64,000 nucleotides of DNA from a virus (taxonomy: Duplodnaviria > Caudoviricetes), in the IMG/VR virus record IMGVR_UViG_3300014205_000177, positions 113,805-177,804 of that record; one strand, given 5' to 3'. Position 1 is the first letter of the stretch, and every line of letters starts with the position of its first letter. This document shows, in pieces, positions 38,117 to 52,294 of the stretch. Under the pieces are notes generated by a model. The model did not search any database and was not told the DNA's origin. It was given only the letters and a program-made list of their open reading frames with translations. The position numbers and the translations under genes were made by a program.

Positions 38117-38159
38117 ATAAAACAGAAACAAAAATAATTTAAAAATGGTGATATTAAAA

Positions 38160-38237: not shown

Positions 38238-38266
38238 TCTTTGTTTTTATTTGTAAATAATGATTT

Positions 38267-38297
38267 AAGAGCGAACCCTAAAAAGTTCGCTTTTTTG
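38267..38297 (+). terminator. Attenuator terminator 1
   Basis: AGCGAAC/GTTCGCT stem plus T-run; alternative pairing with 38224-38237. Confidence 0.8.
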
Positions 38298-38324
38298 TTG
38301 ATTGAAAACTTAATATAATAAAAT

Positions 38325-38417
38325 GCTAGTGTGGCTGAGTGGTCTAAAGCAGCGCACCTGTAATGCGCCGAGTTCATATCAATGGCTCCGTGGGTTCAAA
38401 TCCTACCACTAGCTCCA
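38325..38417 (+). tRNA. tRNA-Thr(UGU), atypical (C33, long variable arm)
   Basis: Acceptor GCTAGTG/CACTAGC, stem GCGCA/TGCGC, loop CCTGTAA, CCA; a Tyr reading needs a broken stem. Confidence 0.7.
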
Positions 38418-38497
38418 GTCTTCCGGCTTCGTAAAAACGAATATAATAACATAGCAATATGTGAAGCGGATATTCCCAGCCGGTTTTATTTTAGAAT

Positions 38498-38575
38498 GGG
38501 GCAATAGCTCAGTTGGCTTAGAGCATCTCGCTTGCACCGAGAAGGTCCAGGGTTCAATTCCCTGTTGTTCCACCA
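38498..38575 (+). tRNA. tRNA-Ala(UGC)
   Basis: Cloverleaf, loop CTTGCAC, G3:U70, CCA. Confidence 0.93.
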
Positions 38576-38583
38576 TTTTACGT

Positions 38584-38661
38584 TGGCTAGTAGCTCAGTT
38601 GGTAGTAAGCGTTCGCCTGTTAAGCGAAAGGTCGCACGTTCGAACCGTGCCTAGCCAGCCA
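38584..38661 (+). tRNA. tRNA-Asn(GUU)
   Basis: Loop CTGTTAA, CCA. Confidence 0.92.
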
Positions 38662-38709
38662 ATTTTATTAACAATGTGTGTTAATATTATTCTAGTTTAA
38701 AATAATTTT

Positions 38710-38795
38710 TGCAGGGATAAGTCTCGGAAGACTGGTAAGGCTCATAACCTTATGCGGAAACGCTGAGTGGGTTCGACTCTCCACCCCTGCTACCA
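38710..38795 (+). tRNA. tRNA-Met(CAU), initiator-like, extra variable hairpin
   Basis: Loop CTCATAA; 1:72 mismatch; GCGGAAACGC V-arm. Confidence 0.75.
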
Positions 38796-38863
38796 TTTCT
38801 CTACCAGAGGTAGGGATATTATAAAGGGTTATCGCTGTCCCCGTCTGACGAAACAGCGAACGT

Positions 38864-38939
38864 GGCTCGTATGGATAATGGCTATCCACAAGTATCATAA
38901 ACTTGTTTAAGGTGGGTTCGATTCCCCCACGAGCTACCA
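38864..38939 (+). tRNA. tRNA with CAU anticodon (Met or Ile2)
   Basis: Stem CAAGT/ACTTG, loop ATCATAA, CCA. Confidence 0.75.
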
Positions 38940-38948
38940 ATTTAAAAC

Positions 38949-39024
38949 GGGGATGTAGCTCAATTAGGAGAGCATCGGTCTGTCGAACCGAAGGTCGTGG
39001 GGGCAGAACCCATCATCCTCGCCA
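38949..39024 (+). tRNA. tRNA-Asp(GUC)
   Basis: Loop CTGTCGA, G73, CCA. Confidence 0.9.
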
Positions 39025-39032
39025 TTTTATAT

Positions 39033-39109
39033 GCTCGGTTAGCTCAATTGGCTAGAGCACTTGGTTTACACCCAAGTTGTTACAGATTCGAGTTCTGTAC
39101 CGAGTACCA
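39033..39109 (+). tRNA. tRNA-Val(UAC)
   Basis: Loop TTTACAC, CCA. Confidence 0.92.
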
Positions 39110-39118
39110 GTTTTATAT

Positions 39119-39208
39119 GGGGAGGTAGCTCAGAGGCAGAGCGTCGGGCTAGGTGGTGAAAACCACCGAATCTGAAGGTCGCTGGTTCGAATCCAGCCTT
39201 CCCCACCA
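39119..39208 (+). ncRNA. tRNA-like RNA with a hairpin inserted in the anticodon loop
   Basis: Intact acceptor, D and T arms and CCA; loop reads CTA-GGTGGT-GAAA-ACCACC-GAA. Confidence 0.8.
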
Positions 39209-39213
39209 GTTTC

Positions 39214-39287
39214 GTTGCGAGATAATATAATTTTTAGTACCCCATTGTGGATGGGAAATGTTGGTGAAAATCCAACTCTCGCAACCA
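39214..39287 (+). tRNA. tRNA-His(GUG), degenerate
   Basis: G-1, loop TTGTGGA; D-loop lacks GG; T-loop atypical. Confidence 0.55.
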
Positions 39288-39312
39288 TTTTTTAAAAAAA
39301 TAGAAAAGTAAT

Positions 39313-39340
39313 TTGTTTTTGAAGTAAATTATGCTATATT
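39313..39340 (+). promoter_or_regulatory. Internal promoter in tRNA array 1
   Basis: TTGTTT-N16-TATATT with TGC. Confidence 0.6.
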
Positions 39341-39431
39341 TTAAAGTATAAGAAAGTTGTTGGATAATTACCAACTGAACTCTGAGGTTATGGGAATATC
39401 AGAGAGAGATTAACAAATAACCCGTACATAT

Positions 39432-39505
39432 CAGAGCGTGAGATAATGGTAGTCGTCCTTCCTTGGAAGAAGGGGGTGGTCGTTCGAATCGACCCGCTCT
39501 GACCA
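39432..39505 (+). tRNA. tRNA-Pro(UGG)
   Basis: C1:G72, loop CTTGGAA, CCA. Confidence 0.9.
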
Positions 39506-39555
39506 TTTTAAATTTAACCATAGTGGTTTAAATAAAAAATAACATAGGAAAAGTT

Positions 39556-39762
39556 ATGGAAGAAGATTTAATTCCTGAAATTTGGGAAAACGGAAAGGGG
39601 AGAACAAAACCCTTTGTAAAAAGTAAGAAAAACAATTATGAAGAACCCAAAAAAAGATTTGGGATAATTGGTAAGAAAAAAGTAAAAGAAAATAGAGAAC
39701 TTCAAGATATAGATGAAGTAGAAGATAAAATAAGTTCTTCTATACTTAGTAAAATTAAATAA
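39556..39762 (+). CDS. Small Lys-rich hypothetical protein
   Basis: 68 aa; AGGA RBS. Confidence 0.6.
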   Translation: MEEDLIPEIWENGKGRTKPFVKSKKNNYEEPKKRFGIIGKKKVKENRELQDIDEVEDKISSSILSKIK

Positions 39763-39767
39763 TATGT

Positions 39768-39843
39768 GTCCGGTTCTTCTAGTTGGACAGGATAAGGGAC
39801 CTTCACTCCCTCGACACGGGTTCGAATCCCGTACCGGATACCA
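39768..39843 (+). tRNA. tRNA-Glu(UUC), C33
   Basis: Stem AGGGA/TCCCT, loop CCTTCAC, CCA. Confidence 0.85.
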
Positions 39844-39846
39844 TAA

Positions 39847-39922
39847 AGCCCTGAAGTGTAACGGCTGCACACTTGTCTTTGACACAAGTAGACTTATGGT
39901 TCAACTCCATGCAGGGCTGCCA
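39847..39922 (+). tRNA. tRNA-Gln(UUG)
   Basis: Loop CTTTGAC, G73, CCA. Confidence 0.88.
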
Positions 39923-39930
39923 GTTTTCGA

Positions 39931-40005
39931 GTTCCCTTAATTCAGAGGAAGAAATTATCGGTCCTAACGATAAAGTCGCTGGTTCAAGTCCAGCAGGGAA
40001 CGCCA
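39931..40005 (+). tRNA. tRNA-Arg(CCU)
   Basis: Stem TATCG/CGATA, loop GTCCTAA, CCA. Confidence 0.82.
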
Positions 40006-40019
40006 GTTTTGTTTTATGT

Positions 40020-40052
40020 GTGCCAGTAGCTGAGAGGATAGAGCAGTGGTTT
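40020..40052 (+). pseudogene. tRNA 5'-half remnant
   Basis: GTGCCAG-TAGCTGAGAGGATAGAGCA-GTGGTTT stops at the anticodon loop, just before the endonuclease gene. Confidence 0.6.
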
Positions 40053-40123
40053 AAATTAAATATTTAAGATTGACGTGTGTTCGATTCAATGTTTCGATGG
40101 TATTATATAAAAAGGAGTTTTAT

Positions 40124-41102
40124 ATGAAAGCCATTGAAATAGATTGGAAATTAGTTCAGGAATACCATAATAATGAGCACTGCTTGAGTGATGTCATGAA
40201 AAATTTTAAGGTTTCAAGAGCATCCATAGATACAGCGGTAAAACATGGATGCTTTGTTAAAAAATATTTTAAACAAGAACACACTGAGGAAACAAAGAAG
40301 GCAATATCTGAAAAAAGGAAAAAATGGTTGGCAGACAATCCAGATAAACATGTATGGAAAAGGAAGGGAAAATTCAAATCTGAACCATGCGAAGTATTAA
40401 AGAAAAAAACTTGAAGAAAATGGAGTTAGTTTTTATCCAGAATTTTCACCAATAGAAAGCCATTCATTCTCTTTAGATATAGCTTTTCCAAAAGATAAGT
40501 TTGGCATAGAAATAAATGGAAACCAGCACTATGAAAGAGACGGTAGACTAAAGGATTATTATCAGAAACGACATGATTTAATCGTTGCAGATGGTTGGGA
40601 ACTATTGGAAATACCTTGTGCTATGGTTTGGAACAAGGAGTTTATTGATGGTTTAATAGAATCACTTAAAACTAAGGTCTGCGGTTTTGAGTATAAAGAA
40701 CAAGTGGAAGAATATAATAAAAAGAAAAGAGAAAAGTATATTTGCCCGACTTGTGACAATAGAAAGAGCAAAAACTCGATGCTTTGTAGAAAGTGTTCTT
40801 TTAAGCCGAAAGTAAAAAAGCAAGTAGTCAGAATTTTTGTAAATAAAAACCATATGTGTCCGAATTGTAAAAACGCTAAAGATGCAAAAGCGGTTTTATG
40901 TAAGGAATGCTTTAGTTTGTCAAAGAGGAAAGTTGAAAGACCAAATAAGGAAGAGTTGGAAAAATTGGTCAAAGAGTTATCGATGACTAAGATAGGCAAG
41001 ATGTTCGGAGTTAGCGACAATGCCGTAAAAAAATGGTGTAAAATTTATGAAATAGAATTAGGAGACAGACGAGGGTACTGGGCAAAGATTTATGCAAGGT
41101 GA
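40124..41102 (+). pseudogene. Frameshifted Vsr/DUF559-like homing endonuclease (NUMOD3-like, nuclease, Zn fingers, HTH)
   Basis: Removing one A from the A7 run at 40403-40409 joins both ORFs through LDIAFP...IEINGNQH...GWELL. Confidence 0.75.
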
Positions 41103-41110
41103 TTTAACAT

Positions 41111-41185
41111 GGTCTCATAGCTTAACGGATAAAGTTCGTGTCTTCTAAACACGCCATTCGGGTTCAATTCCCGATGAGACCTCCA
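41111..41185 (+). tRNA. tRNA-Arg(UCU)
   Basis: Stem CGTGT/ACACG, loop CTTCTAA, CCA. Confidence 0.88.
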
Positions 41186-41206
41186 ATTTTAAAAAAGGAA
41201 TTTTTT

Positions 41207-41464
41207 ATGAAAAGAGCTAGACCTATTTACTCACTAGGGCAGTATTATAGAAACAGGGGCACTCATAAACGAGAAGAAGCAATAAGCGAAGACGAAGAAC
41301 ATAGTCCATTAACTAGAGCCAAGAGAGAATCAAATTTACCTGACTCTTGGGATACAAAAAAGATTTGCAGACCTAAGACATGGAAGAGGAGATGCAAGAA
41401 AGCAAAACAGTGGATGAAACATTTTATGACAGATTTAGAAAAGAAATTTATAAGAGGAGAATAA
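41207..41464 (+). CDS. Basic hypothetical protein
   Basis: ATG 41207 with AAGGA RBS; RAKR..LPDSWD...WK motif. Confidence 0.7.
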   Translation: MKRARPIYSLGQYYRNRGTHKREEAISEDEEHSPLTRAKRESNLPDSWDTKKICRPKTWKRRCKKAKQWMKHFMTDLEKKFIRGE

Positions 41465-41467
41465 ACG

Positions 41468-41572
41468 ATGAGTGGAAAAGGATGTAAGAGAAGACCTCAA
41501 CAGATAAGCGAAGAAAAAATGCAAAGCAATTGGGAAAAAGCATTTAACAAAGGAAATAAAAAGAAAAAATGA
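41468..41572 (+). CDS. Small phage protein (MSGKGCKRRP...NWEKAF)
   Basis: 34 aa; GAGGAG RBS; ATGA overlap with the next gene. Confidence 0.65.
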   Translation: MSGKGCKRRPQQISEEKMQSNWEKAFNKGNKKKK

Positions 41573-42156
41573 GTGAAGTATTGGTTTTAAACAAGCTATG
41601 GCAACCAGTTAAAGTTATTAACGTATGGGATGCAATTTGCAAAGTATATCAAGATAAAGCTTCTTTTTTAGATGCTAATTATGTTATGCATAATTGGGAA
41701 TCTTGGGTTATATCATGGAAAGATGCAGAAATTCATGCAAAAGATATGATACATGGTTCATCTTGTTCTATTAGAAAACCAACTGTAATTGTTTTAAAAA
41801 ACTACAGTGGGTATGTTTTTAAAAAACCAAAGATGAGTAGGCGTAACATTTACTTAAGGGATGCAAACCAGTGCCAATATTGTGGTATAACATACGAAAC
41901 AAAGAAACTAAATATAGACCATATTATACCTAAATCTCATGGGGGAAGAACTCAATGGACTAATGTAGTAGTTTCATGTATAAAATGTAATAGTTTTAAA
42001 GCAGATAGAACTCCTGAACAGGCAGGAATGAAACTTTTAAGAAAGCCAAAAGCTCCTACCTGGAAAGATGTTAACATGGAAGCTTTTCAAAGAAATTATT
42101 CTAATTGGCACGGTCTGTTAAATGACATGTACTGGAATGTTACTTTAGAAAAATAG
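41569..42156 (+). CDS. HNH endonuclease (McrA-like)
   Basis: VLVLN...RD..CQYCG...DHIIPKSHGG...N...C..CN..K. Confidence 0.9.
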   Translation: MSEVLVLNKLWQPVKVINVWDAICKVYQDKASFLDANYVMHNWESWVISWKDAEIHAKDMIHGSSCSIRKPTVIVLKNYSGYVFKKPKMSRRNIYLRDANQCQYCGITYETKKLNIDHIIPKSHGGRTQWTNVVVSCIKCNSFKADRTPEQAGMKLLRKPKAPTWKDVNMEAFQRNYSNWHGLLNDMYWNVTLEK

Positions 42157-42235
42157 AATTATAAGATTGACAAATAAAAAAAAGATGCTATACTTAATAA
42201 GTGTAGCATTTTTTATATATAAATAAGGAGATAAA

Positions 42236-42622
42236 ATGAGTGAAAAAATTGTAATGGGTAAAATGTTTTCTATTGAAAATAAAAACAAAAAAACCGGTGA
42301 AAATGAAAAATACATAGCCGTTTATGTAGAAGACGAAAGCGGAAATGAAGAAACCGAAAGGTGCTTACTATTTACGGAAATAGAGCTTTCCGACATGGAA
42401 AAAGTTGTACTTCCATTTGTTAAGAATACAATGAAAAAAGGAAGAATTTATTCTGTTATTATAGACAAAAAAGAAACAAATCTTTTAAAAGTAGAAACAG
42501 AACGTAATGGAAATATTATTTTTAGGGTTTCTAATTCTCAACTTAAATCGGCAGAAGAAAGGGTTAAAAGAAATCCAGAAGATGTTGAAAAGAAAGATTT
42601 TATAACTGATTTACTTGACTAA
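42236..42622 (+). CDS. Hypothetical protein
   Basis: 128 aa; AAGGAG RBS; promoter upstream. Confidence 0.75.
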   Translation: MSEKIVMGKMFSIENKNKKTGENEKYIAVYVEDESGNEETERCLLFTEIELSDMEKVVLPFVKNTMKKGRIYSVIIDKKETNLLKVETERNGNIIFRVSNSQLKSAEERVKRNPEDVEKKDFITDLLD

Positions 42623-42631
42623 CAAGGAAAT

Positions 42632-42865
42632 ATGATGAAATTAAAAATAAAATGTCCAGAATGTAAAAGGGAACATCTTGTCACTATATCAAATGAACAA
42701 CCTATTATGGAAATTAAAAAGATAAAATGTTTATCTTGTAGTATAATTATAAAATATAGAATAGGAATAAAAAAAGAAAATACCAGTGATAGTTCTTCTA
42801 AACTTTTTGATAGTATGGGAATGTTTGGAGATGTTTTTAAAAATATTATGGGGAGTAAAAGATGA
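42632..42865 (+). CDS. Zn-ribbon protein
   Basis: CPEC...CLSC. Confidence 0.65.
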   Translation: MMKLKIKCPECKREHLVTISNEQPIMEIKKIKCLSCSIIIKYRIGIKKENTSDSSSKLFDSMGMFGDVFKNIMGSKR

Positions 42866-43188
42866 TAGGTACAATAGAAGTGGTAAATAAATATACATAT
42901 GAAGGTGATTATATAGATATAATGAGAGGAACTCCACTTGGTAATCCATATATAGTTTCTGATTCAATGAGCAGAGAACAATCAGTTTTAAATTTTTATA
43001 AATATTTCAGAAAAGAATTTTTTAAAAAAACAGATGTATATAATGCAATAATGGAGATAGTTGAAAAGGTTAAGTCTGGAGAAAATGTAAAAATTAAATG
43101 TTGTTGTAAACCAAAATTATGCCATGGCGATATTATAAAAATTGCAATAGAAAGTATTTTAGAAAAACAAATTAGAAATAATACTTGA
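42862..43188 (+). CDS. DUF4326-like protein
   Basis: IMRGTPLGNPY...CCCKPKLCHGDII. Confidence 0.8.
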   Translation: MIGTIEVVNKYTYEGDYIDIMRGTPLGNPYIVSDSMSREQSVLNFYKYFRKEFFKKTDVYNAIMEIVEKVKSGENVKIKCCCKPKLCHGDIIKIAIESILEKQIRNNT

Positions 43189-43343
43189 TTTTTAAAAATA
43201 TTATGCTATAGTTAATATTATAAAATTTCTTATTATGAGAAATTAAAAAAAAGAGGTAAAAAATGATGTAGAATAATAAATCTCCATAACGTGTTTCTTT
43301 GTTTTAATGATTTTAATAATAATAATAAACAAAGGAGAGTATA
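43185..43343 (+). promoter_or_regulatory. Promoter, amber-interrupted leader and RBS-sequestering hairpin
   Basis: TTGATT-N16-TATAGT; GAGGT RBS; ATG ATG TAG AAT AAT AAA TCT CCA TAA at 43263-43289; 43294-43304 pairs with 43327-43337. Confidence 0.65.
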
Positions 43344-43718
43344 ATGAATACTTTAAGAAACACGAACGAAGAAGTAATAGATTTGAAGAAAGAGGAATAT
43401 AAGAAGAATATTAAAAGGATGAAGGCTAACGTTAAACTGGTGTCAAATAACATAAAAGAAATGAAAGAAGAATTAAAGACTAAGCAAAAAAAAGGTGATT
43501 ATAAAAGTTGGTCTTTAATGAGTGATTTAAATTCTTATAAAAATGATGTCAGAAATACACATATAGCTTATGCTATGGCAAAAGGGAGAGTCTACCAAAA
43601 AATTGAGTCAAAAGTTAGAGATAACAATGAACCAAACTGGTGGGCAATAAAGGCAAATATAGAAAATTTCTTCGGAAAGAAATTTGAAATTGTTGACTTC
43701 AAGGTAAACTTTCTATGA
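43344..43718 (+). CDS. Hypothetical protein upstream of Pth2-like gene
   Basis: 124 aa; RNTHIAYAMAKGRVYQKIE motif. Confidence 0.75.
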   Translation: MNTLRNTNEEVIDLKKEEYKKNIKRMKANVKLVSNNIKEMKEELKTKQKKGDYKSWSLMSDLNSYKNDVRNTHIAYAMAKGRVYQKIESKVRDNNEPNWWAIKANIENFFGKKFEIVDFKVNFL

Positions 43719-44017
43719 AAAAGGTATTTATAATAACCAGGAAAGACCTTGAAAATGGAGCAAGAATAGTTCAGTCTGTTCATTCATTCCATGAGTTGGC
43801 AAGAAAAAATGAAGAAATATTGAATCAGGTATATAATACAATATGTTACAAAATAGAAGACGAACTATCATTAAAAGAAGTTTCTGAGAGGATAGCAAGT
43901 AATCTAAACGAAAAAGAATATGCATGGTTCAGAGAAACAGATTACAATAATCAATTGACCTCTTTTGCAGTCTTTACAAACAAGAAAGAGCTGTTTAAAG
44001 GTTTAAGATTGGCGTAA
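43715..44017 (+). CDS. Peptidyl-tRNA hydrolase 2-like protein
   Basis: IITRKDL..GARIVQSVH...FRETDYNNQLTSFA...LF..LRL pattern. Confidence 0.7.
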   Translation: MKKVFIITRKDLENGARIVQSVHSFHELARKNEEILNQVYNTICYKIEDELSLKEVSERIASNLNEKEYAWFRETDYNNQLTSFAVFTNKKELFKGLRLA

Positions 44018-44021
44018 TAAA

Positions 44022-44051
44022 TAGGGAGGAGTAAATCCTCCCATTATTTTA
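44022..44051 (+). terminator. Intrinsic terminator
   Basis: GGGAGGA/TCCTCCC stem with T-rich tail. Confidence 0.65.
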
Positions 44052-44067
44052 TAAAAAATGGAGAAAA

Positions 44068-44538
44068 ATGAGCAATAAAGAAAATTATTTTTTAGACCTA
44101 GCACTTAGAAGTGCTCATCAAGGTTCCTGTACAAGAAGAAACTACGGAGCAATTATAGTAAACGAGAAAAAGCATATAGTAGCAACTGGTTATACAGGAA
44201 ATGTATCAGGAGAAGAGCACTGTAATAGTCTTGGAATTTGCTGGAGAAAAGAGAATAATATTCCAAGTGGAACCTCCTACGAACGCTGTAAATCAATACA
44301 TGCCGAACAGAATGCGTTAATTCAAGCCGGTAAAGAATCTTATGGTTCTGTAATATATATTGCCGGATATGATGTAGAAACAGGAAGGGAAATAGCTGGT
44401 ATACCTTGCTTTATTTGTGCAAAACTAATTGTTAATGCTGGAATATCTTCTATTATATATAGAGATACATCTTTAGTGTTCAGGAAGGGTCCAGTTGCCC
44501 ATTATCGTGAACTAGAAAGAAAAATATTTGGAAAATAA
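44068..44538 (+). CDS. dCMP deaminase (ComEB-like)
   Basis: HAEQNA and PCFIC zinc motifs. Confidence 0.88.
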   Translation: MSNKENYFLDLALRSAHQGSCTRRNYGAIIVNEKKHIVATGYTGNVSGEEHCNSLGICWRKENNIPSGTSYERCKSIHAEQNALIQAGKESYGSVIYIAGYDVETGREIAGIPCFICAKLIVNAGISSIIYRDTSLVFRKGPVAHYRELERKIFGK

Positions 44539-44550
44539 TAGTTTATGGTG

Positions 44551-44578
44551 TTGTTTTTTTATAAAGTAATGCTATAAT
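44551..44578 (+). promoter_or_regulatory. Promoter of tRNA array 2
   Basis: TTGTTT-N16-TATAAT with TGC. Confidence 0.75.
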
Positions 44579-44718
44579 ATAATCAACAGCCACCGATATA
44601 GAAATATACGGTAATGTATAGCTCATCTGCCAGGTGTAGAGTGAGTTTCCGAGAATGACGATGACAAAATTCAAAGTTGTTCTCCGTTTTTAAAAAAAAA
44701 TAAAAGGAATTATATTAA

Positions 44719-44790
44719 ATGATGAACGTTTTTAAAAAGATTAGTTTTGGTCGTTGGGGTTTTAAACCTCACGTCCGTCTATTCTTGTAA
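44719..44790 (+). CDS. Attenuator leader peptide 2 (MMNVFKKISFGRWGFKPHVRLFL)
   Basis: AAGGA RBS; codons match all 8 array 2 tRNAs. Confidence 0.82.
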   Translation: MMNVFKKISFGRWGFKPHVRLFL

Positions 44791-44816
44791 CGTTTATCGT
44801 TAGTTGTTGGAGAAGT

Positions 44817-44850
44817 AGGCGGACTAGAAATAGTTCGCCTTTTTGTTTTT
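44817..44850 (+). terminator. Attenuator terminator 2
   Basis: AGGCGGACTA-GAAA-TAGTTCGCCT plus TTTTGTTTTT; alternative pairing with 44773-44785. Confidence 0.85.
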
Positions 44851-44852
44851 AT

Positions 44853-44928
44853 GGGTTGATAGCAAACGTGGTCAATGCATACCGTTGAAGCCGGTACTAC
44901 TTCGGTTCAATTCCGAATCAACCCACCA
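44853..44928 (+). tRNA. tRNA-Phe(GAA)
   Basis: Loop TTGAAGC, CCA. Confidence 0.88.
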
Positions 44929-44938
44929 GTTTATGTGA

Positions 44939-45029
44939 GCAAGGTTGTCTTAGCGGCTTGAGAAACCGACTTTTAATCGGTCAGAGGGTAATGCCTCGTA
45001 GGTGGGTTCGACTCCCACACCTTGCACCA
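44939..45029 (+). tRNA. tRNA-Lys(UUU) with long variable arm
   Basis: Stem ACCGA/TCGGT, loop CTTTTAA, V-arm GAGG/CCTC, CCA. Confidence 0.82.
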
Positions 45030-45040
45030 TTTTATAGTAT

Positions 45041-45125
45041 GCGTCGATGTCATAGCGGTTGTGAGGCTGACTCTTAATCAGTGAGAGAAATCTCTAGGTG
45101 GGTTCAACTCCCACTCGGCGCACCA
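45041..45125 (+). tRNA. tRNA-Lys(CUU) with long variable arm
   Basis: Loop CTCTTAA, V-arm GAGA-GAAA-TCTC, CCA. Confidence 0.82.
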
Positions 45126-45137
45126 AGTTTTTTGTGT

Positions 45138-45211
45138 ATGTCTATAGTTCAATAGTAGAACGGGAGTCTCCAAAACTCTTGACGAGGGGGCAGTACCTTC
45201 TAGACATGCCA
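45138..45211 (+). tRNA. tRNA-Trp(CCA)
   Basis: Loop CTCCAAA, G73, CCA. Confidence 0.88.
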
Positions 45212-45220
45212 GTTTTATAT

Positions 45221-45296
45221 GCGCTGTTAGCTCAGTTGGAAGAGCCCAAAAATACGAATTTTGAGGTCGGGGATTCGAATTCTCCACGGCGCACCA
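45221..45296 (+). tRNA. tRNA-Arg(ACG)
   Basis: Stem CAAAA/TTTTG, loop ATACGAA, CCA. Confidence 0.88.
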
Positions 45297-45303
45297 TTTT
45301 CAT

Positions 45304-45379
45304 TGGCGTATCATATAACGGTCAATTATGTGAGACTGATATTCTCATCACCAAGGTTCAACTCCTTGTACGCCAACCA
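45304..45379 (+). tRNA. tRNA-Ile(GAU)
   Basis: Loop CTGATAT, CCA. Confidence 0.87.
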
Positions 45380-45388
45380 GTTATACAT

Positions 45389-45464
45389 ATTCGGTTAGTT
45401 TAGCGGCTAGAACAATACGTTGACATCGTATAAATCATGGGTTCGATTCCCATACCGAATACCA
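45389..45464 (+). tRNA. tRNA-Val(GAC)
   Basis: Loop TTGACAT, CCA. Confidence 0.88.
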
Positions 45465-45472
45465 GTTTTCAT

Positions 45473-45546
45473 GCGAATATAGTACAGTAGCAGTATTTGA
45501 CGTTGCCAACGTTAGGACGAGGGTGCAATTCCCTCTATTCGCACCA
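45473..45546 (+). tRNA. tRNA-Gly(GCC)
   Basis: Loop TTGCCAA, CCA. Confidence 0.85.
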
Positions 45547-45610
45547 TTTTTTGCAACGAAAAATATAATCTTTATGTTGCAAAACCAAGATATTGTGCTA
45601 TACTATCAAT

Positions 45611-45734
45611 GGCGGTTTAGAGAAAGGTTCATCGCCCTCTAACAAGGGAGGGATTGCAGTAGATTCACCGTGGAAGAAAAGTACATCAGTGAAGGAACCA
45701 ATCCAATGTTTTTTCGATAAAACAATCGCCACCA
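45611..45734 (+). ncRNA. Structured RNA with tRNA-like ends
   Basis: GGCGGTT/AATCGCC-A-CCA; T-arm-like GTTTT-TTCGAT-AAAAC; promoter just upstream. Confidence 0.55.
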
Positions 45735-45792
45735 TTTGACATTTATAAAAATCATGCTATTGTACCTCAACAAACTAAAAAGGAGATATGCA

Positions 45793-46191
45793 ATGTGTAT
45801 CAAAATCAAGGCGATGGAAAATGGAGTAATGATTCAAAGCAGAGAAGAATATGAAGATATAATGGATATTCTATTGGATGCAGGTCTTCGGACAGTGAGT
45901 GGAAAATATTTTGGAGAATGTGACTGGTTTAATGAAACCGGAACCGAAACAGTTATAGATTTGAGAAATCTGGAGTCTATTGCATATGGTGAATATCAGT
46001 ATTTTATTGATAATGATATCCCGGTTTGTAATTTCCAGGATTTTCTTACAGAACAGGGTTTAACACCAAACGGATGCATTAGCGGTGAACAACAGATATT
46101 TATGCGTAGGGCAAAGTTGAAATGTCCAAAAATGAAAAAGAAAGAAATCAGAAGACTTGCAAAGGCAATCGTGAGGGAGATGAACAAATGA
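45793..46191 (+). CDS. Hypothetical protein
   Basis: AGGAG RBS; promoter upstream. Confidence 0.7.
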   Translation: MCIKIKAMENGVMIQSREEYEDIMDILLDAGLRTVSGKYFGECDWFNETGTETVIDLRNLESIAYGEYQYFIDNDIPVCNFQDFLTEQGLTPNGCISGEQQIFMRRAKLKCPKMKKKEIRRLAKAIVREMNK

Positions 46192-46769
46192 AAGCAAGAA
46201 CTAAAAAAGAAGTAGTGCAAATAGGATTATTAGTTGATGAGAGTGGTTCTATGTATAGCCTCTCTGGTGATACAATCGGTACGGTTAATGGTTTCATTAA
46301 AGACCAGAAAAAAGTAAAAGGAGAAGCAGAAATAACAATAGCTTCATTTAATGATAACTATAAACTCATTAAAGATAGAGAAGATATCAAAAATATTGAA
46401 GAAATTACCAGCGAAGATTATTCTCCATCTGGAATGACGGCATTATATGATTCTATTATGAAAATAATTTCTTCCATAGAAGAGACAAAAGCTAAAAAAG
46501 CGATAATCGCTATTATTACAGATGGAATGGAAAACTCAAGTATTGAATATAAAGATTCAAGTGTAATTAAAGAAAAAATACAGCAGAAACAAAAAGACGG
46601 GTGGCAGATATTATTTCTAGCTGCAAATATTGACGAAAAGGCAGTGGGTGCAAGTTTCGGAATAAATGCAATGTACACTCAGGCGTTTACTCCTACAGCA
46701 GATGGCGTAATAGGTGCTATGTCATATACATCGAGATGCGTTAGTGATTACAGGGGCAATAATGATTAA
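46188..46769 (+). CDS. vWA-domain protein
   Basis: MIDAS DESGSM, GMTALYD, ITDGMENSS. Confidence 0.88.
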   Translation: MKARTKKEVVQIGLLVDESGSMYSLSGDTIGTVNGFIKDQKKVKGEAEITIASFNDNYKLIKDREDIKNIEEITSEDYSPSGMTALYDSIMKIISSIEETKAKKAIIAIITDGMENSSIEYKDSSVIKEKIQQKQKDGWQILFLAANIDEKAVGASFGINAMYTQAFTPTADGVIGAMSYTSRCVSDYRGNND

Positions 46770-46865
46770 AATAGGGATAACACAGAGAGAGGTGATGCGG
46801 CTTTAGATTTAAAATGGTTGTGTTTATTGGAAATAAATAAAAATCAAAAAAAGTTTTAAAACTAT

Positions 46866-46893
46866 TTGTTTTTATCGAAAGTAATGCTATAAT
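46866..46893 (+). promoter_or_regulatory. Promoter of tRNA array 3
   Basis: TTGTTT-N16-TATAAT with TGC. Confidence 0.75.
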
Positions 46894-46932
46894 ATAGATG
46901 TGTAAGATAAATAAATTAAAAAGGAAATCATC

Positions 46933-47007
46933 ATGAACAAGTTGTTATCAAGTCATTCACTATCGCTCTCATCCTATATAGGATGCGAGATAGGTCTGCT
47001 TTGGTAA
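46933..47007 (+). CDS. Attenuator leader peptide 3 (MNKLLSSHSLSLSSYIGCEIGLLW)
   Basis: AAGGA RBS; Ser/Leu-rich codons match array 3 tRNAs. Confidence 0.82.
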   Translation: MNKLLSSHSLSLSSYIGCEIGLLW

Positions 47008-47034
47008 TACTTTTTAGATATTCCCAGTTTTTAA

Positions 47035-47071
47035 AAAGAGCAGACCGTAAAAAGTCTGCTCTTTGTTTTTG
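47035..47071 (+). terminator. Attenuator terminator 3
   Basis: AAAGAGCAGAC/GTCTGCTCTTT plus GTTTTT; alternative pairing with 46993-47002. Confidence 0.85.
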
Positions 47072-47080
47072 TTGTGATAT

Positions 47081-47155
47081 GCTCCAGTAACATAATGGCT
47101 AGTGTAGGTGACTTCCACTCACCCAATGAGAGTTCGATTCTCTCCTGGAGTACCA
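47081..47155 (+). tRNA. tRNA-Gly(UCC)
   Basis: Loop CTTCCAC, CCA. Confidence 0.88.
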
Positions 47156-47163
47156 GTTTATAT

Positions 47164-47261
47164 GGAAGAATAAGCCGAAAGATTCTGGGTAGCGGCAACG
47201 GTCTTGAAAACCGAAGGCTCTAAAACAGGGCGTGTGGGTTCGAATCCTACTTCTTCCGCCA
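47164..47261 (+). tRNA. tRNA-Ser(UGA)
   Basis: Loop CTTGAAA, long V-arm, G73. Confidence 0.88.
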
Positions 47262-47303
47262 GTTTAGACTAGAAATAGTTGATGTTGTTTGAAAATTATA
47301 TAT

Positions 47304-47376
47304 GTCCCGTGAGCCAGATGGAGAGGCGATTGTCTGCAAAACAATGGAAACAGTTCGATTCTGTAACGGGACTCCA
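47304..47376 (+). tRNA. tRNA-Cys(GCA)
   Basis: Loop CTGCAAA, U73, CCA. Confidence 0.87.
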
Positions 47377-47384
47377 GTTTATAA

Positions 47385-47476
47385 GGAGATGTAATCCTAA
47401 AGGCAAGGAAAGAGTTTGCTAAACTCTTAGTAACCGAGAAATCGGCGTGGGTTTTCAAGACACCCCATCTCCGCCA
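47385..47476 (+). tRNA. tRNA-Ser(GCU)
   Basis: Loop TTGCTAA, long V-arm, G73. Confidence 0.82.
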
Positions 47477-47550
47477 GTTTTAAGTAGACAACTCACTATG
47501 TCATAAAAGTACCAAGAGGGCGACATAGTAATCAGAATAGAATATTATTT

Positions 47551-47626
47551 CCGCAGGTAGCTCAGGGGTCAGAGCTCTATTCTTATAAAGTAGCTGTCAG
47601 TGGTTCAATTCCACTCCTGCGGACCA
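47551..47626 (+). tRNA. tRNA-Ile(UAU)
   Basis: Stem CTATT/AGTAG, loop CTTATAA, CCA. Confidence 0.85.
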
Positions 47627-47637
47627 TTTTAAAATAA

Positions 47638-47725
47638 GGGTGTTGTCCCCCACGGAAGTCTGTAAAACTTTTGACATATGTAAGTGGGGTGGCGTCAAGT
47701 GGTTCAATTCCACCAATACCCACCA
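47638..47725 (+). tRNA. tRNA-Tyr(GUA), non-canonical fold
   Basis: Loop CTGTAAA; 8-bp acceptor, 4-bp T stem; no normal D-arm. Confidence 0.65.
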
Positions 47726-47752
47726 TTTTTAGGCGACTTAGCGGTCGTCTTT

Positions 47753-47883
47753 GAGCGCACAACGCCTAGTAATCTAAGTGGCATCCAAAGTTGCTCTTGG
47801 TGCTTAGAGGGCTTGTATTTCGAGTGTGGTTTGCAACAGCCCACATGAGAAGCATATAGGTATTGCCGGAAGATTGTGTGCTC
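47753..47883 (+). ncRNA. Unidentified structured RNA
   Basis: Closing stem GAGCGCACAA/TTGTGTGCTC enclosing two hairpins. Confidence 0.5.
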
Positions 47884-47893
47884 TAAATTTTAT

Positions 47894-47984
47894 GGAAGTT
47901 TGCCGGAGATGGATTATCGGCTCTCATTGGAAATGAGATGGTCACTTAAGTGGCACGAAGATTCGAATTCTTCAACTTCCGCCA
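47894..47984 (+). tRNA. tRNA-Ser(GGA)
   Basis: Loop TTGGAAA, long V-arm, G73. Confidence 0.88.
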
Positions 47985-47992
47985 GTTTTAAT

Positions 47993-48125
47993 GGGGGTGA
48001 AATTTATTCGATTATGGTTTCGCAATGTGGTAGCTTGGAAGCAATGGTAGCAAATGCACTTGAAAACTCTACCATCCACACTTAGGAAACCGTAAGACCT
48101 GGGTTAAATCCCAGCACTTCCACCA
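47993..48125 (+). ncRNA. Minimal tmRNA-like RNA, 133 nt
   Basis: GGGGGTG/CACTTCC-A-CCA with G3:U70; ATTCGA D-loop analogue; helix TTATGGTTTC/GAAACCGTAA; GAC then T-arm. Confidence 0.7.
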
Positions 48126-48130
48126 GTTTT

Positions 48131-48305
48131 GGTAAACGTGAAGACGAAGATTGAGGAATGGTTTGTTTTGGACGAACGCCCCGTTATCCATGGGGAGAAG
48201 ACATAAAACTCAGCACCAAGTCATTTCGTGGTGGCGTTGCCAGAGAAGTTATGGGTACGATTGTGGCTCGTATTTAGACCGGAGCATTACCGGTACGTCA
48301 CCCCA
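48131..48305 (+). ncRNA. Structured RNA with tRNA-like 3' end
   Basis: GGTAAACGT/ACGTCACC-CCA; ACCGG-N7-CCGGT; several internal hairpins. Confidence 0.45.
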
Positions 48306-48315
48306 ATTTTTATGT

Positions 48316-48392
48316 GCGCCTATAGGAGAATTGGCATATCCGTCTGGTTTAGGCCCAGAATTTTCTCGGTTCGAGTCCGAGTAGGCGTACCA
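48316..48392 (+). tRNA. tRNA-Leu(UAG), short variable loop
   Basis: Loop TTTAGGC, CCA. Confidence 0.85.
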
Positions 48393-48447
48393 CATTTTTT
48401 AGACTAGAAATAGTCGACGTTGTTTGAAAAAGTATATATGAAAATAT

Positions 48448-48724
48448 CCCCATGTGGCGGAATGGCAGACGCAACGGACTTATTAATTTGAGCCTTATAT
48501 TGGAAACTTTATAAGTGGACATGGCTAATTCGGTGAATCCTTTAATATGGTAACGCCGAGCTATCGAAAGAGAGTGTAGAGACTTTACACCATGTGCCTA
48601 AGTCTATGAAGATATGGCAAAGACAAAGTCCAGACCACGCAAGAAGAGAGTAGTGAAAACTATAGTGGTACGAAAATTCGTCGCCCGTTAGGGCGTGAGG
48701 GTTCGACTCCCTCCTTGGGGACCA
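48448..48724 (+). tRNA. tRNA-Leu(UAA) split by a group I intron
   Basis: Exons 48448-48481 and 48673-48724 rebuild loop CT-TAA-AA. Confidence 0.9.
48482..48672 (+). mobile_element. Group I intron (trnL-UAA type), 191 nt
   Basis: Inserted U^AA; P AATTCGGTGAA, Q AACGCCGAGC, R GTAGAGACT, S AAGACAAAGTCC; terminal G. Confidence 0.9.
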
Positions 48725-48802
48725 AATATTTATGTTATAGTTATTTTTTTGTGTTATTTGCATCTGCCATGTTATATTATAATAAAACAGCGGGAGTAAA
48801 TA

Positions 48803-49717
48803 ATGAAATATACAAAAGAGATGCTAGAAGAGGCAATTAAAAATAATGTTAGTTTTGCGGGAGTTCTAAAAAGTTTTGGATTACATCCGTCCGGTGGTAG
48901 TCATAGACTAATAAAATCAAAAGCATTAAGTTTTGGAATAAGTACGGAACATTTTCTTGGAAAGGCATCAAATTGCGGAAGTAGGTACAAAGGTGGGTTA
49001 GAAAAAATAAGTTTTTCAGATGTGTTAGTGTACGATAGAAGAAATGGAATGAGGGAGAGTGCCTCTAAACTAAAAAGGTCTATGCTGGAAAGCGGGATAG
49101 AATATAAGTGCGAAAAGTGTAACAATGATGGTGTCTGGATGGATGGTTTTGTGTCTTTGGAGGTTCATCACAAAAATGGAGATACTTTTGACAACACAAA
49201 AGAAAACCTTGTATTTATATGTCCCAATTGTCACAGTCAAACTGACAACTTTCGTGGAAGAAATAAGGTTGAAAAAGATATTCAACAAATAAGAACAGAA
49301 GAGGAGGTTGTTGCAGCACTTCTAAAGAGTAAAAATATAAGACAATCACTTATAGAACTAAATTTGGCTCCATACGGAGGTAATTACGATAGGATTAAAA
49401 GAGTAATGATAAAAAAGGATATTGAGTTCAATAAAAAAGAAAAGAAAACTGCAACATGTCCGTCGTGCGGAAATAAAAAAGATTACTCCAGCGCAGAATG
49501 TAGAAAGTGCGCAAGTATAAAGAGAGGTTTGGCAGAAAGAAAAGTTGAACGTCCATCAAAAGAAGGCTTGGAGAAAATGATTGCTGAACTTCCAATGACA
49601 AAGATTGGAAAAATGTTTGGAGTAAGTGATAATACTATTAGAAAATGGTGTAAGAATTACGGAATAGAATTAGGTAATAGATTAGGATACTGGACGAAGA
49701 TAAAATATAGCAAATAA
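48803..49717 (+). CDS. HNH homing endonuclease with C-terminal Zn finger and HTH
   Basis: CEKC...LEVHHKNGD..DNTKENL...CPNCHSQT. Confidence 0.9.
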   Translation: MKYTKEMLEEAIKNNVSFAGVLKSFGLHPSGGSHRLIKSKALSFGISTEHFLGKASNCGSRYKGGLEKISFSDVLVYDRRNGMRESASKLKRSMLESGIEYKCEKCNNDGVWMDGFVSLEVHHKNGDTFDNTKENLVFICPNCHSQTDNFRGRNKVEKDIQQIRTEEEVVAALLKSKNIRQSLIELNLAPYGGNYDRIKRVMIKKDIEFNKKEKKTATCPSCGNKKDYSSAECRKCASIKRGLAERKVERPSKEGLEKMIAELPMTKIGKMFGVSDNTIRKWCKNYGIELGNRLGYWTKIKYSK

Positions 49718-49721
49718 ATAT

Positions 49722-49798
49722 GGTCTCGTAACCGAATTGGCATAGGTATCGTGCCCAAACCACGAGTTTTATGGGTTCGACCCCCATCGAGACCACCA
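49722..49798 (+). tRNA. tRNA-Leu(CAA), C33, short variable loop
   Basis: Stem TCGTG/CACGA, loop CCCAAAC, CCA. Confidence 0.78.
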
Positions 49799-49979
49799 TT
49801 TAGATTTGAAATTACTTGTTTATATGCTATATTAATAAAAAATATTGAAGAAGTAAAAGAAATATTATATAAAATTTTAAATCAAAGATGGTAACTTATC
49901 CGTAATCTGTTGTAGATTCTTGAATGAGAGGAGATAGGGACAAGGATAAGTTATTATTTTTAATGATAAAGGAGAGAAT

Positions 49980-50147
49980 ATGAACTATATAGATGTAATT
50001 ATTGATAAACACGAAGAAAAAATTAAAGCAGTAAAAGAATCTTCTTCATGTAAAGGTGATTTTGCTAGAAAACTTTTAGAAAAAGGAATTGTACCTTATT
50101 TTTCTGATGGAATAAAAATTTATGAAAAACTTTATAAATCTTCTTGA
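49980..50147 (+). CDS. Small hypothetical protein, 55 aa
   Basis: AAGGAG RBS; MNYIDVIIDKH... Confidence 0.55.
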   Translation: MNYIDVIIDKHEEKIKAVKESSSCKGDFARKLLEKGIVPYFSDGIKIYEKLYKSS

Positions 50148-50209
50148 TTTTAATAAAAAGTGTGCTATAATATAGATGTAATGAAAATTACGAGTTGTTT
50201 AAATTTTTT

Positions 50210-50283
50210 GAGGAAGCGGTTAGATGAGTTACTTCAATGATTTTAAATCTTTGCCAAAAAACGCTTGTCTTATTATTCTCCTC
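50210..50283 (+). ncRNA. Y RNA-like RNA, short
   Basis: GAGGA/TCCTC closing stem; ATGAGTTACTTCAA...GCTTGT shared with 50498-50616; upstream of Ro60. Confidence 0.7.
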
Positions 50284-50293
50284 ATACATTTTT

Positions 50294-50488
50294 ATCTGTT
50301 ATATGGATTCCTCGCCACTGTTACAGTAGTGGAGGTTGAACGTTCATACGTTCCTAGGAGGTTGTGGTTAAATACTGCTCAGGTGTGGATTAAATAGGTC
50401 TGTAAATATTAAACATTAATGCCTATTTTAACATGGTTGTATATTGCGCAATATATGACATAAGCAGTCAGAATTTTAACTAACAGAT
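50294..50488 (+). ncRNA. Unidentified multi-stem RNA between the Y RNAs
   Basis: ATCTGTTA/TAACAGAT closing stem with several internal hairpins. Confidence 0.5.
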
Positions 50489-50497
50489 TACATTTTT

Positions 50498-50616
50498 GTT
50501 GGGTAGTGTAGATATGAGTTACTTCAAAGCTCAATGGTAGAGCATTTCTCTTGAAAAGAAAATGTTACTGGTTCAAATCCAGTTGATAATAAAGCTTGTA
50601 TCGCTTTTCTCCCAAC
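50498..50616 (+). ncRNA. YrlA-type Y RNA with tRNA-like domain
   Basis: GTTGGG/CCCAAC stem enclosing D-arm AGCTCAATGGTAGAGC, anticodon-like arm and T-arm CTGGTTCAAATCCAG; no acceptor CCA. Confidence 0.82.
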
Positions 50617-50740
50617 TCTTATTTTACGTCAACCATGTGTTGAATGTAGTGAACCTGTCATGGTACAGGTTTTGAGTTGGGTGGGGTTCTCGCATACCTC
50701 ACCCATTTTTTTTACAATTTATGCGAAAGGAAAAAGGAAA

Positions 50741-52294
50741 ATGACTATCAACGCAAAAAGGGAAAAGGTAGAAATGTCTCACAAAAATTTTATGAATGGA
50801 AAGTCTTATAATGTATCTCCATTTATAAGATTACAAATGGTAGCAGCTTCATGTTTTATGGGAGAACCTCAATATTACAAAAAAGCCGGAACAAAATATT
50901 CAACTATTGAATATATTGAAAAAGTTCTTGGGTCTCATTCAACAAACGATTGGAAAGGACTTAATTCAGTAGAAATTATAGAAAAAACTATTGATGAATG
51001 TTTAAGTATTGATGTTGAAAAAACTCTTATAATTGCAGAATCATTAAGGGTTGAAGACTATATGAGAGAAACACCACAAGTAATTTTAGTTAGAGCAGCA
51101 GTCCATAAAAATCAAAAGGGAACCGGTTTAGTAAATAAATATGGACTAAGAATTTGTATTCGTGGAGATGAACCAGCAACCGGACTAGCTTATCTATTGA
51201 AAGCTTTTGGAAGAAAATCAATTCCTAATTCCCTTAAAAAAGTTTGGAAAAGTGTTCTAGAAAGCCTGACCGATTATGAAATTGCAAAATATAAGATGGG
51301 TTCAAGAGAAGTTCGTACTATTGATGTTGTTCGTATTTGTCATGCTAATTCTGCATCCATTAATAAGTTAATGAGTGGAAATGCTAAAGAATTTAACACT
51401 TATCGTTCTATTATCTCTAATAGTGATAATTCAACATCTGAAGCAAGAGAAATTAACTGGAGAAAGGTTGTAGAAAAGTCTGGACATATGGCTTTATTGA
51501 GAAATATTCGTAACTTCGTTAAAAACGGAATACCTGTTTCTTATTTTTCAAATAAATTGAAGAATGGAGTTTTGGAAGGAAAGCAATTTCCATTTAGATA
51601 CTACAATGCAATGATTGAAAATAATGGTAATGGATATGTTAAAAACTGTTTGGAAGAATGTATGGATATTGCAATTAATAATATGCCAAAGTTCGAAGGT
51701 CGTGTAATGTCATTATGTGATAATTCAGGTTCTGCAACAAGTTCAAAATTATCTACACTTGGAAATACAAGTGTTTCTACAGTTGCTAACCTTATGGGTA
51801 TCATTACTGCAAAATGTTTCAGTAAAGGTGGACAATTGGGTCTTTTCGGAGATAAATTATCTATTGATGATGTAAATCCATCAAGAGGAGTTCTGTCAAC
51901 TCTTCAAACTATAGAAGAAAAGTCAAGATGGGTTGGGGGTGGAACAGAACATGGAGCATGGTTATTTTGGGATTATGCAACTAAAAACAACGAACATTAT
52001 GATTATGTTTTTGTTTATAGTGACATGCAAGCAGGACATGGTGGTCTTTATGGTAGCGATAATAGTTATATAAATTATATATATCCTGGAACTAGAAATT
52101 ATATAGATATTCCAAAATTAATATCTGAATATAGAAAGAAAGTAAACCCAAATGTTAAGGTATTTCTTGTACAAGTTGCAGGATATGAAGATACATTGAT
52201 TCCTGAATTCTATAAAAACACATATATTCTTGGTGGATGGAGTGAAAATATTCTTAAATTCGCAAAGAAAATGGAACAAATAAAACAATATTAA
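50741..52294 (+). CDS. rsr: Ro60/TROVE-domain RNA-binding protein with vWA domain
   Basis: GEPQYY, MRETPQ, HMALLRNIRN, QFPFRY, DNSGS, SDMQ; adjacent Y RNAs. Confidence 0.9.
   Translation: MTINAKREKVEMSHKNFMNGKSYNVSPFIRLQMVAASCFMGEPQYYKKAGTKYSTIEYIEKVLGSHSTNDWKGLNSVEIIEKTIDECLSIDVEKTLIIAESLRVEDYMRETPQVILVRAAVHKNQKGTGLVNKYGLRICIRGDEPATGLAYLLKAFGRKSIPNSLKKVWKSVLESLTDYEIAKYKMGSREVRTIDVVRICHANSASINKLMSGNAKEFNTYRSIISNSDNSTSEAREINWRKVVEKSGHMALLRNIRNFVKNGIPVSYFSNKLKNGVLEGKQFPFRYYNAMIENNGNGYVKNCLEECMDIAINNMPKFEGRVMSLCDNSGSATSSKLSTLGNTSVSTVANLMGIITAKCFSKGGQLGLFGDKLSIDDVNPSRGVLSTLQTIEEKSRWVGGGTEHGAWLFWDYATKNNEHYDYVFVYSDMQAGHGGLYGSDNSYINYIYPGTRNYIDIPKLISEYRKKVNPNVKVFLVQVAGYEDTLIPEFYKNTYILGGWSENILKFAKKMEQIKQY

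Follow-up and report, generated by a model that had tools for sequence, protein, structure and literature searches.

We conclude that the leader in front of the third tRNA gene array of this phage is probably a trp-type, ribosome-mediated attenuator that gates the array and reports the decoding of the array's own codons. Judged on its sequence, we give this reading a probability of roughly 0.75. The initial annotation had proposed a leader-peptide attenuator matched to array 3, and every computational test that we ran, whether of its parts, its codon match, its alternative helices, the geometry of the ribosome or its relatives, supported that proposal. Stalling itself, the switching of termination by a stall, and tRNA supply as the physiological signal are what we infer from these results.

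The window (the whole stretch of 64,000 nucleotides analysed here) is the final 64 kb of a 177.8-kb phage contig (30% G+C). The contig ends overlap by ∼123 nt, indicating a complete, circularly assembled phage genome. The contig is included in a 4-Mb MAG bin from a landfill metagenome, and no sequence is common to the MAG and the contig. Pieces identical to window positions 46838-46987 and 47006-47070, covering promoter, leader and terminator, occur in a wastewater run of 2025 that belongs to another study, and thus this phage, or a near-identical one, is present beyond the landfill sample. Three tRNA arrays lie on the + strand between 38.3 and 49.8 kb of the window, and a promoter, leader ORF and terminator are laid out in the same way at the start of each. 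The parts of the unit at array 3 (unit 3), with the promoter elements assigned by sequence, are:

46866-46871, + strand: -35 hexamer of the attenuator promoter, TTGTTT, 16 nt upstream of the -10 element
46885-46893, + strand: extended -10 element TGcTATAAT of a sigma-70-type promoter
46921-46925, + strand: Shine-Dalgarno site AAGGA, 7 nt 5' of the ATG
46933-47007, + strand: leader ORF of 24 codons plus TAA (ATG 46933-46935, TAA 47005-47007)
46942-46980, + strand: matched block of leader 3, codons 4-16 (Leu Leu Ser Ser His Ser Leu Ser Leu Ser Ser Tyr Ile)
46949-46960, + strand: segment 1, inside the leader ORF, the partner of segment 2 before segment 3 exists
46993-47003, + strand: segment 2, the antiterminator strand, a near copy of the terminator 3' arm
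47035-47045, + strand: segment 3, the terminator 5' arm, which pairs with segment 2 in the antiterminator
47054-47064, + strand: segment 4, the terminator 3' arm
47065-47074, + strand: T-rich tail of the terminator, ending 6 nt 5' of tRNA-Gly

The 13-mer ATGCTATAATATA is present as an exact copy at all three array promoters and, with one mismatch allowed, occurs 6 times in the window against 0.34 expected. The -35 hexamer is likewise unchanged in an alignment with three orthologous units of relatives. The strength of the Shine-Dalgarno sites and the presence of extended -10 promoters point to a host in which both are in use. The leader is the only ORF of at least 6 codons in the stretch from the promoter to the first tRNA of array 3, and its final four sense codons share their positions with segment 2. 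The intrinsic terminator (47035-47064) has an 11-bp stem with 5 G-C pairs, an 8-nt loop and a folding energy of -16.3 kcal/mol, and is followed by a T-run. The gap from the terminator to tRNA-Gly is just 6-16 nt, and therefore unit 3 has no room for a second promoter. Downstream of the terminator, array 3 consists of the following genes, given with the leader codons that they read:

47081-47155, + strand: tRNA-Gly (TCC), reads GGA
47164-47261, + strand: tRNA-Ser (TGA), reads TCA (three times) and TCG; found by ARAGORN at a lower threshold, 37 bits with the tRNA-Sec model
47304-47376, + strand: tRNA-Cys (GCA), reads TGC
47385-47476, + strand: tRNA-Ser (GCT), reads AGT
47551-47626, + strand: tRNA-Ile (TAT), reads ATA (twice)
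47638-47726, + strand: aberrant tRNA-Tyr (GTA), reads TAT; identified by eye
47894-47984, + strand: tRNA-Ser (GGA), reads TCC
48231-48305, + strand: tRNA-His (GTG), reads CAT
48316-48392, + strand: tRNA-Leu (TAG), reads CTA and CTG
48448-48724, + strand: tRNA-Leu (TAA) with an intron of ∼191 nt, reads TTA; found by ARAGORN with introns allowed
49722-49798, + strand: tRNA-Leu (CAA), reads TTG

An HNH endonuclease ORF (48803-49717) sits between tRNA-Leu (CAA) and the remainder of the array. The statement that the leader samples every tRNA of array 3 stands, while the accompanying count of ten does not: eleven are decodable, tRNA-His (GTG) having been omitted even though its codon, CAT, was listed. 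tRNA-Tyr (GTA), which neither ARAGORN nor Rfam finds at 47638-47726, is without a normal D arm, and its homologue in the relative L107 (6568-6655) carries compensatory changes in the acceptor and anticodon stems, suggesting a functional, remodelled tRNA. The intron of tRNA-Leu (TAA) has matching 3' exon pieces in two relatives (L108 ∼7482-7565 and L111 ∼6903-6986), which suggests that it is conserved there; no Rfam match to a group I intron was reported for it. Being sampled by the leader had been taken as an argument that the odd tRNAs are functional. That argument runs indirectly, and for Tyr-GTA it is helped by the conserved, co-varying L107 homologue.

The codons of leader 3 fit array 3 closely. 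We re-read codons 4-18 (46942-46986) as TTG TTA TCA AGT CAT TCA CTA TCG CTC TCA TCC TAT ATA GGA TGC, exactly as first annotated, and 14 of these 15 are matched in frame, a score that falls to 7 and 3 when the frame is shifted. Over the leader as a whole, array 3 reads 16/23 codons under strict wobble, or 19/23 if U34 reads whole family boxes, and 11/11 of its anticodons are sampled, while arrays 1 and 2 read only 2/23 and 3/23 codons, respectively, under strict wobble. Among 200,000 windows of 23 codons drawn from the phage's own long ORFs, a match to array 3 at this level arises with P = 1.4e-4, and match and coverage jointly in none (0/200,000). The two sister units behave in the same manner:

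38160-38294, + strand: sister unit 1, 5' of array 1 (leader ORF 38160-38237, terminator 38267-38294)
44719-44840, + strand: sister unit 2, 5' of array 2 (leader ORF 44719-44790, terminator 44817-44840)

Leaders 1 and 2 are matched to their own arrays in both the random-window test and the 3x3 matrix of leaders by arrays, the diagonal of which shows that each of the three leaders fits its own array only. Taking the amino acids as given, 23 of 29 informative synonymous choices fit the leader's own array (15.7 expected, p = 0.003). The codons of single amino acids are partitioned accordingly: arrays 1 and 2, in that order, divide Val (GTG and GTT/GTC) and Arg (AGA and CGT), and arrays 2 and 3 divide Ile (ATT and ATA) and Gly (GGT and GGA). 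The leaders also choose codons that are rare in the phage (TCG, CTC, TCC and TGC, RSCU 0.15-0.39), which argues for selection for probing isoacceptors rather than for ordinary codon usage. The match is not perfect, in that no array tRNA reads CTC, CTT or GGT under strict wobble. CTC had been counted among the codons read by array 3; this holds only if Leu-UAG reads all four CUN codons and fails under strict wobble, and a Leu-GAG tRNA that would read it was looked for and not found. Most array 3 tRNAs are represented by a single leader codon, and sensitivity to any one tRNA may therefore be low compared with classical attenuators, which carry runs of regulatory codons.

Complementarity between codons and anticodons would also be predicted if the leader were a T-box-like RNA, binding tRNAs directly through specifier-like triplets without a ribosome. 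We think this very unlikely. The triplets lie in one frame, running from a Shine-Dalgarno site and ATG to a stop codon, in all orthologues, and there would be 13-15 consecutive "specifiers", where a T-box has one. In Rfam searches (positions 37900-51000 with E up to 1, and the whole window with gathering scores), neither the T-box nor the amino-acid leader families (Trp, His, Leu, Thr) matched, nor did any other cis-regulatory family, even at E up to 1.

The RNA of the leader is predicted to fold as a trp-type attenuator would require. The initial annotation had paired GGTCTGCTTT (46993-47002) with AGAGCAGACC (47037-47046); both placements are exact, and the pairing comprises 10 bp with one G-U. 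The 2:3 antiterminator duplex has a predicted energy of -12.7 kcal/mol, compared with -6.9 ± 1.8 when the leader tail is shuffled 1000 times with its dinucleotides kept (p ∼0.009), and the fold of the whole of leader 3 has z = -6.57 against shuffles. In the predicted folds, the helices 1:2, 2:3 and 3:4 are mutually exclusive, and the favoured structure changes as the transcript lengthens. A transcript that ends before segment 3, represented by 46906-47030, folds with helix 1:2 in place (-29.7 kcal/mol). When 47035-47046 has been made and the 3' arm has not, the minimum-energy fold is that in which segment 2 pairs with 47035-47046. The full transcript folds into helix 1:2 plus the terminator, and over 46988-47072 the terminator form comes to -20.7 kcal/mol and the antiterminator form to -17.6 kcal/mol.

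The position of the matched codons agrees with these helices. The model ribosome covered positions -15 to +14 relative to the A site. With this footprint, the antiterminator is allowed with the A site at codons 1-16 and blocked at codons 17-25, the stop codon included. The productive zone thus holds 13 of the 15 codons in the matched block 4-18, with GGA and TGC (codons 17-18) borderline because a ribosome stalled there would already cover part of segment 2. Across ten units, 114/149 residues within the stall zone are matched against 42/100 beyond it (Fisher p = 6e-8, which is not a strict probability, as the units are related). In each of the ten, the end of the matched block falls no more than about two codons from the furthest A-site position at which segment 2 is still free.

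Four syntenic metagenomic contigs (L107, L108, L111 and L113) were reached through homologues of the TROVE/Ro60 gene of the window, their TROVE proteins being ∼50% identical. The window and all four relatives have a common gene order: DUF4326, dCMP deaminase, array 2, VWA protein, array 3, TROVE. Orthologous attenuator units are kept in the four, with promoter, Shine-Dalgarno site, ORF and terminator. The type-3 units (L107 5036-5107, L108 5496-5573 and L111 4039-4119; one was looked for in L113 and not found) align with the window through an invariant promoter core, and have a GGAG-type ribosome site at the same distance as in the window, an ORF of 23-26 codons and a terminator.

The homologues were tested for the codon match, and the leaders of the relatives fit their own arrays. 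A Val tRNA in array 3 is accompanied by two Val codons in leader 3 in L108 and L111, and tRNA and codons alike are missing from the window and L107; His-GTG occurs together with a His codon in the window and in L107, and L108 lacks both. Cys-GCA and Ile-TAT belong to array 2 in the relatives, where TGC and ATA are in leader 2, while in the window the two tRNAs have shifted to unit 3 and their codons with them. For amino acids with a tRNA in only some of the orthologous arrays, the leader contains the residue in 16/16 cases where the tRNA is there and in 11/22 where it is absent (p = 7e-4, indicative only, given that the units are related). Terminator sequences vary between genomes, and the best partner of segment 2 is the terminator of the same unit in 4/4 type-3 units.

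These comparisons also bear on the possibility that there is no switch at all, and that the hairpin is a fixed, leaky stop or an element of RNA processing or stability, with the ORF translated for the sake of a micropeptide or of ribosome loading. Two units without significant antiterminator complementarity (unit 1, p = 0.36; L107 unit 3, p = 0.54) speak for this explanation, as does a promoter-like element (TTGACA/TTGAAA, N16, TATTGT/TATATT) that is conserved in the relatives 3' of the terminator:

L107 5165-5228, L108 5626-5683, L111 4176-4229: promoter-like element between the type-3 terminator and tRNA-Gly

With such an element in place, the attenuator cannot be the sole input to array 3 in the relatives. 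The window does not have it at that place; a similar sequence, TGTTGTTTGAAAAT, is found at 47283-47296, between Ser-TGA and Cys-GCA. We nevertheless consider a switchless leader improbable, since it would leave unexplained why leader codons track their own array within and between genomes, why the match is specific to frame and codon, why the boundary of the footprint, ahead of segment 2, is where the matched block stops, and why segment 2 co-varies with its own terminator. The poor conservation of the leader peptides also counts against it.

Searches of GenBank phages and IMG/VR turned up no close relative. The region gave only tRNA matches, at no more than 82% identity, in a BLAST search of GenBank phages. 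In IMG/VR and metagenomes, the VWA protein found only relatives of at most 43% identity; the TROVE protein found nothing in IMG/VR, and neither did the type-2 terminator 24-mer in IMG/VR and species genomes. In IMG/VR the promoter 18-mer found three unrelated contigs, and 166 genomes from the family of the MAG, searched at the DNA level, gave no match. When tRNA arrays of other phages were screened for codon match, no matched leader was found in Bacillus phage G, nor in L009-L012, L032/33, L056, L110, L114, L118 or L119. The codon-matched leader design is not universal among tRNA-bearing phages. A 429-kb phage (L001/L027) has one candidate unit (L027 14257-14420), 5' of His, Glu, Val and Trp tRNAs, with 9/23 codons and 4/4 anticodons matched and a 13-bp terminator; its antiterminator is weak (p = 0.16), the remaining 24 tRNAs of that phage are without a leader, and the unit is only a lead.

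AT-rich DNA commonly holds short ORFs and hairpins, and one might accordingly take the leader for a chance ORF in AT-rich intergenic DNA beside an ordinary terminator. This we find scarcely credible: the random windows, the synonymous choices, the reading frame, the boundary of the stall zone and the relatives' matches to their own arrays all oppose it, and the pattern is present three times in this genome and again in four relatives, while the arrays of unrelated phages gave nothing.

Several other elements were noted in the course of this work. Downstream of the array 2 promoter but ahead of leader 2 is a 12-codon mini-ORF (44655-44693); of its 11 codons, array 2 reads 7, and it has no clear ribosome-binding site. 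Thr-TGT (38325-38417), Lys-TTT (44939-45029) and Lys-CTT (45041-45125) have variable arms that are long and paired, as is normally seen only in tRNAs for Leu, Ser, Tyr and Sec. A tRNA body at 39119-39208 (54.6 bits in Rfam) carries a 6-bp, GAAA-capped hairpin inside its anticodon loop, and ARAGORN either leaves it undetermined or calls it Arg-ACG, with an intron of 15 nt. A CTA anticodon (amber-suppressor-like, labelled "Pyl" by ARAGORN) recurs among tRNAs of the phage and its relatives (G000:C2:18254, L107 4247, L113 7547 and L112 2077). Matches of just ∼80 nt to the Rfam tmRNA family are found at L108 7671-7751 and L107 8117-8199, for which the equivalent window position is 47993-48125. Finally, a partial tRNA-like element (50524-50586, Rfam tRNA positions 5-66) lies just 5' of the TROVE/Ro60 gene (50741-52294). 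The locus has its own promoter (50144-50174) and terminator (50678-50705), the pairing of element and gene is kept in relatives (L107 9071-9133, L113 9595-9650), and the two are probably a phage Ro protein and its Y-RNA (YrlA-like) partner.

We propose that unit 3 would operate as follows. Host RNA polymerase would start at the extended -10 promoter and produce a leader of ∼170 nt. Without a ribosome, segment 1 would hold segment 2, the terminator would form, and transcription would stop 6-16 nt before tRNA-Gly. A ribosome that translates quickly would reach the stop codon and cover segment 2, so that the terminator would form again. If the tRNA for Leu, Ser, His, Tyr or Ile were scarce, uncharged or cut, the ribosome would dwell at codons 4-16, melt helix 1:2 and free segment 2; the Gly and Cys codons (17-18) may act likewise, though less certainly. 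The free segment 2 could then pair with the terminator 5' arm, and polymerase would proceed into the eleven tRNA genes. The new tRNAs would hasten decoding of the leader and close the gate, constituting a negative feedback, and with arrays 1 and 2 under their own leaders there would be three independent channels. Such a mechanism would require transcription and translation to be tightly coupled. A point against it is that, when infection begins, host tRNAs should be able to read all of the leader codons; the arrays would in that case be off unless supply falls, as it plausibly may.

The anatomy described so far would be identical if the attenuator sensed amino-acid starvation, that is uncharged tRNA, and not the abundance or integrity of tRNAs, with the extra tRNA serving some other end; a missing and an uncharged tRNA are indistinguishable to the ribosome. 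We regard this version as unlikely, however, because extra tRNA gives no relief from amino-acid starvation, and because the leaders are split by isoacceptor and not by amino acid (as seen for Val, Ile, Gly and Arg), which fits the sensing of individual tRNAs.

A more speculative suggestion, which we make tentatively and would not rely upon, is that the three codon-partitioned attenuators are together a phage-borne sensor of tRNA depletion, replacing tRNAs on demand. A host or competing element would cut or withhold tRNAs, for instance through anticodon nucleases, and only the stalled channel would open, supplying replacements that include structurally remodelled tRNAs which the nucleases may not recognise. 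If this were true, the leaders would also be a list, readable from sequence, of those odd tRNA genes that really decode. On the attenuator reading itself, if it holds, at least this phage lineage would treat tRNA supply as a regulated quantity, and leader-peptide attenuation would reach beyond amino-acid metabolism to the translation apparatus itself. When and why phages need tRNA genes has been debated for decades, and a decoding test wired to a terminator bears on that question. The corresponding sequence rule, that leader codons equal array content, would if true predict which tRNAs are co-transcribed and functional, and a unit of this kind could serve again as a synthetic device that senses whether chosen tRNAs are available.

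Large phage-encoded tRNA sets such as that of this phage are already described, and are treated there as codon supplements or as counter-defence, standing in for host tRNAs in short supply or cleaved by anticodon nucleases (PMC10264068, PMC11555353, PMC11464382). A text search of PMC10264068 and of the Sf14 tRNA study PMC12482277 found leaders, attenuators, terminators and promoters of tRNA genes unmentioned. We found no published account of leader-peptide control of tRNA genes, in a literature coverage that is incomplete, such that an earlier description may exist; on-demand control of phage tRNA genes would be new. That leader-peptide attenuators can sense tRNA abundance or gene dosage is indicated by the loss of pheR, one tRNA-Phe gene, which de-represses the pheA attenuator 6-7 fold (PMC3082878). 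An attenuator-like leader at E. coli pheV was considered and discarded, the K-12 sequence having none.

T-box riboswitches resemble the phage unit in being tRNA-responsive antitermination devices 5' of translation-related genes that use a codon-anticodon logic. They differ in that a T-box binds one uncharged tRNA directly, through a conserved fold and a single specifier, whereas the phage triplets form a translated ORF. A further comparison is offered by pheM, the leader of the E. coli pheST (Phe-tRNA synthetase) operon, which senses one amino acid through a run of Phe codons. There, as in the phage unit, a component of translation is controlled by the speed at which its own cognate codons are translated in a leader; pheM, however, is cellular and controls a synthetase, while the phage unit is viral and would control tRNA genes.

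The anatomy of unit 3 is that of the enterobacterial leader attenuators (trpL, hisL, leuL, pheL, thrL and ilvGMEDA), with which it has in common the promoter, the Shine-Dalgarno site, a short ORF of regulatory codons and the terminator, as well as the exclusive 1:2, 2:3 and 3:4 helices and a stop codon placed to let a finishing ribosome cover segment 2. Like phage leader 3, ilvL is multivalent, answering to several amino acids. The phage unit departs from these systems in its targets, which are tRNA genes and not enzymes, so that the product would feed directly back on the sensor, and in its codons, where a sampler of 11 isoacceptors, mostly once each, takes the place of the runs of a single codon in enterobacterial leaders. 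Finally, unlike the enterobacterial leaders, the phage attenuators are carried by a phage and come as three codon-partitioned copies.
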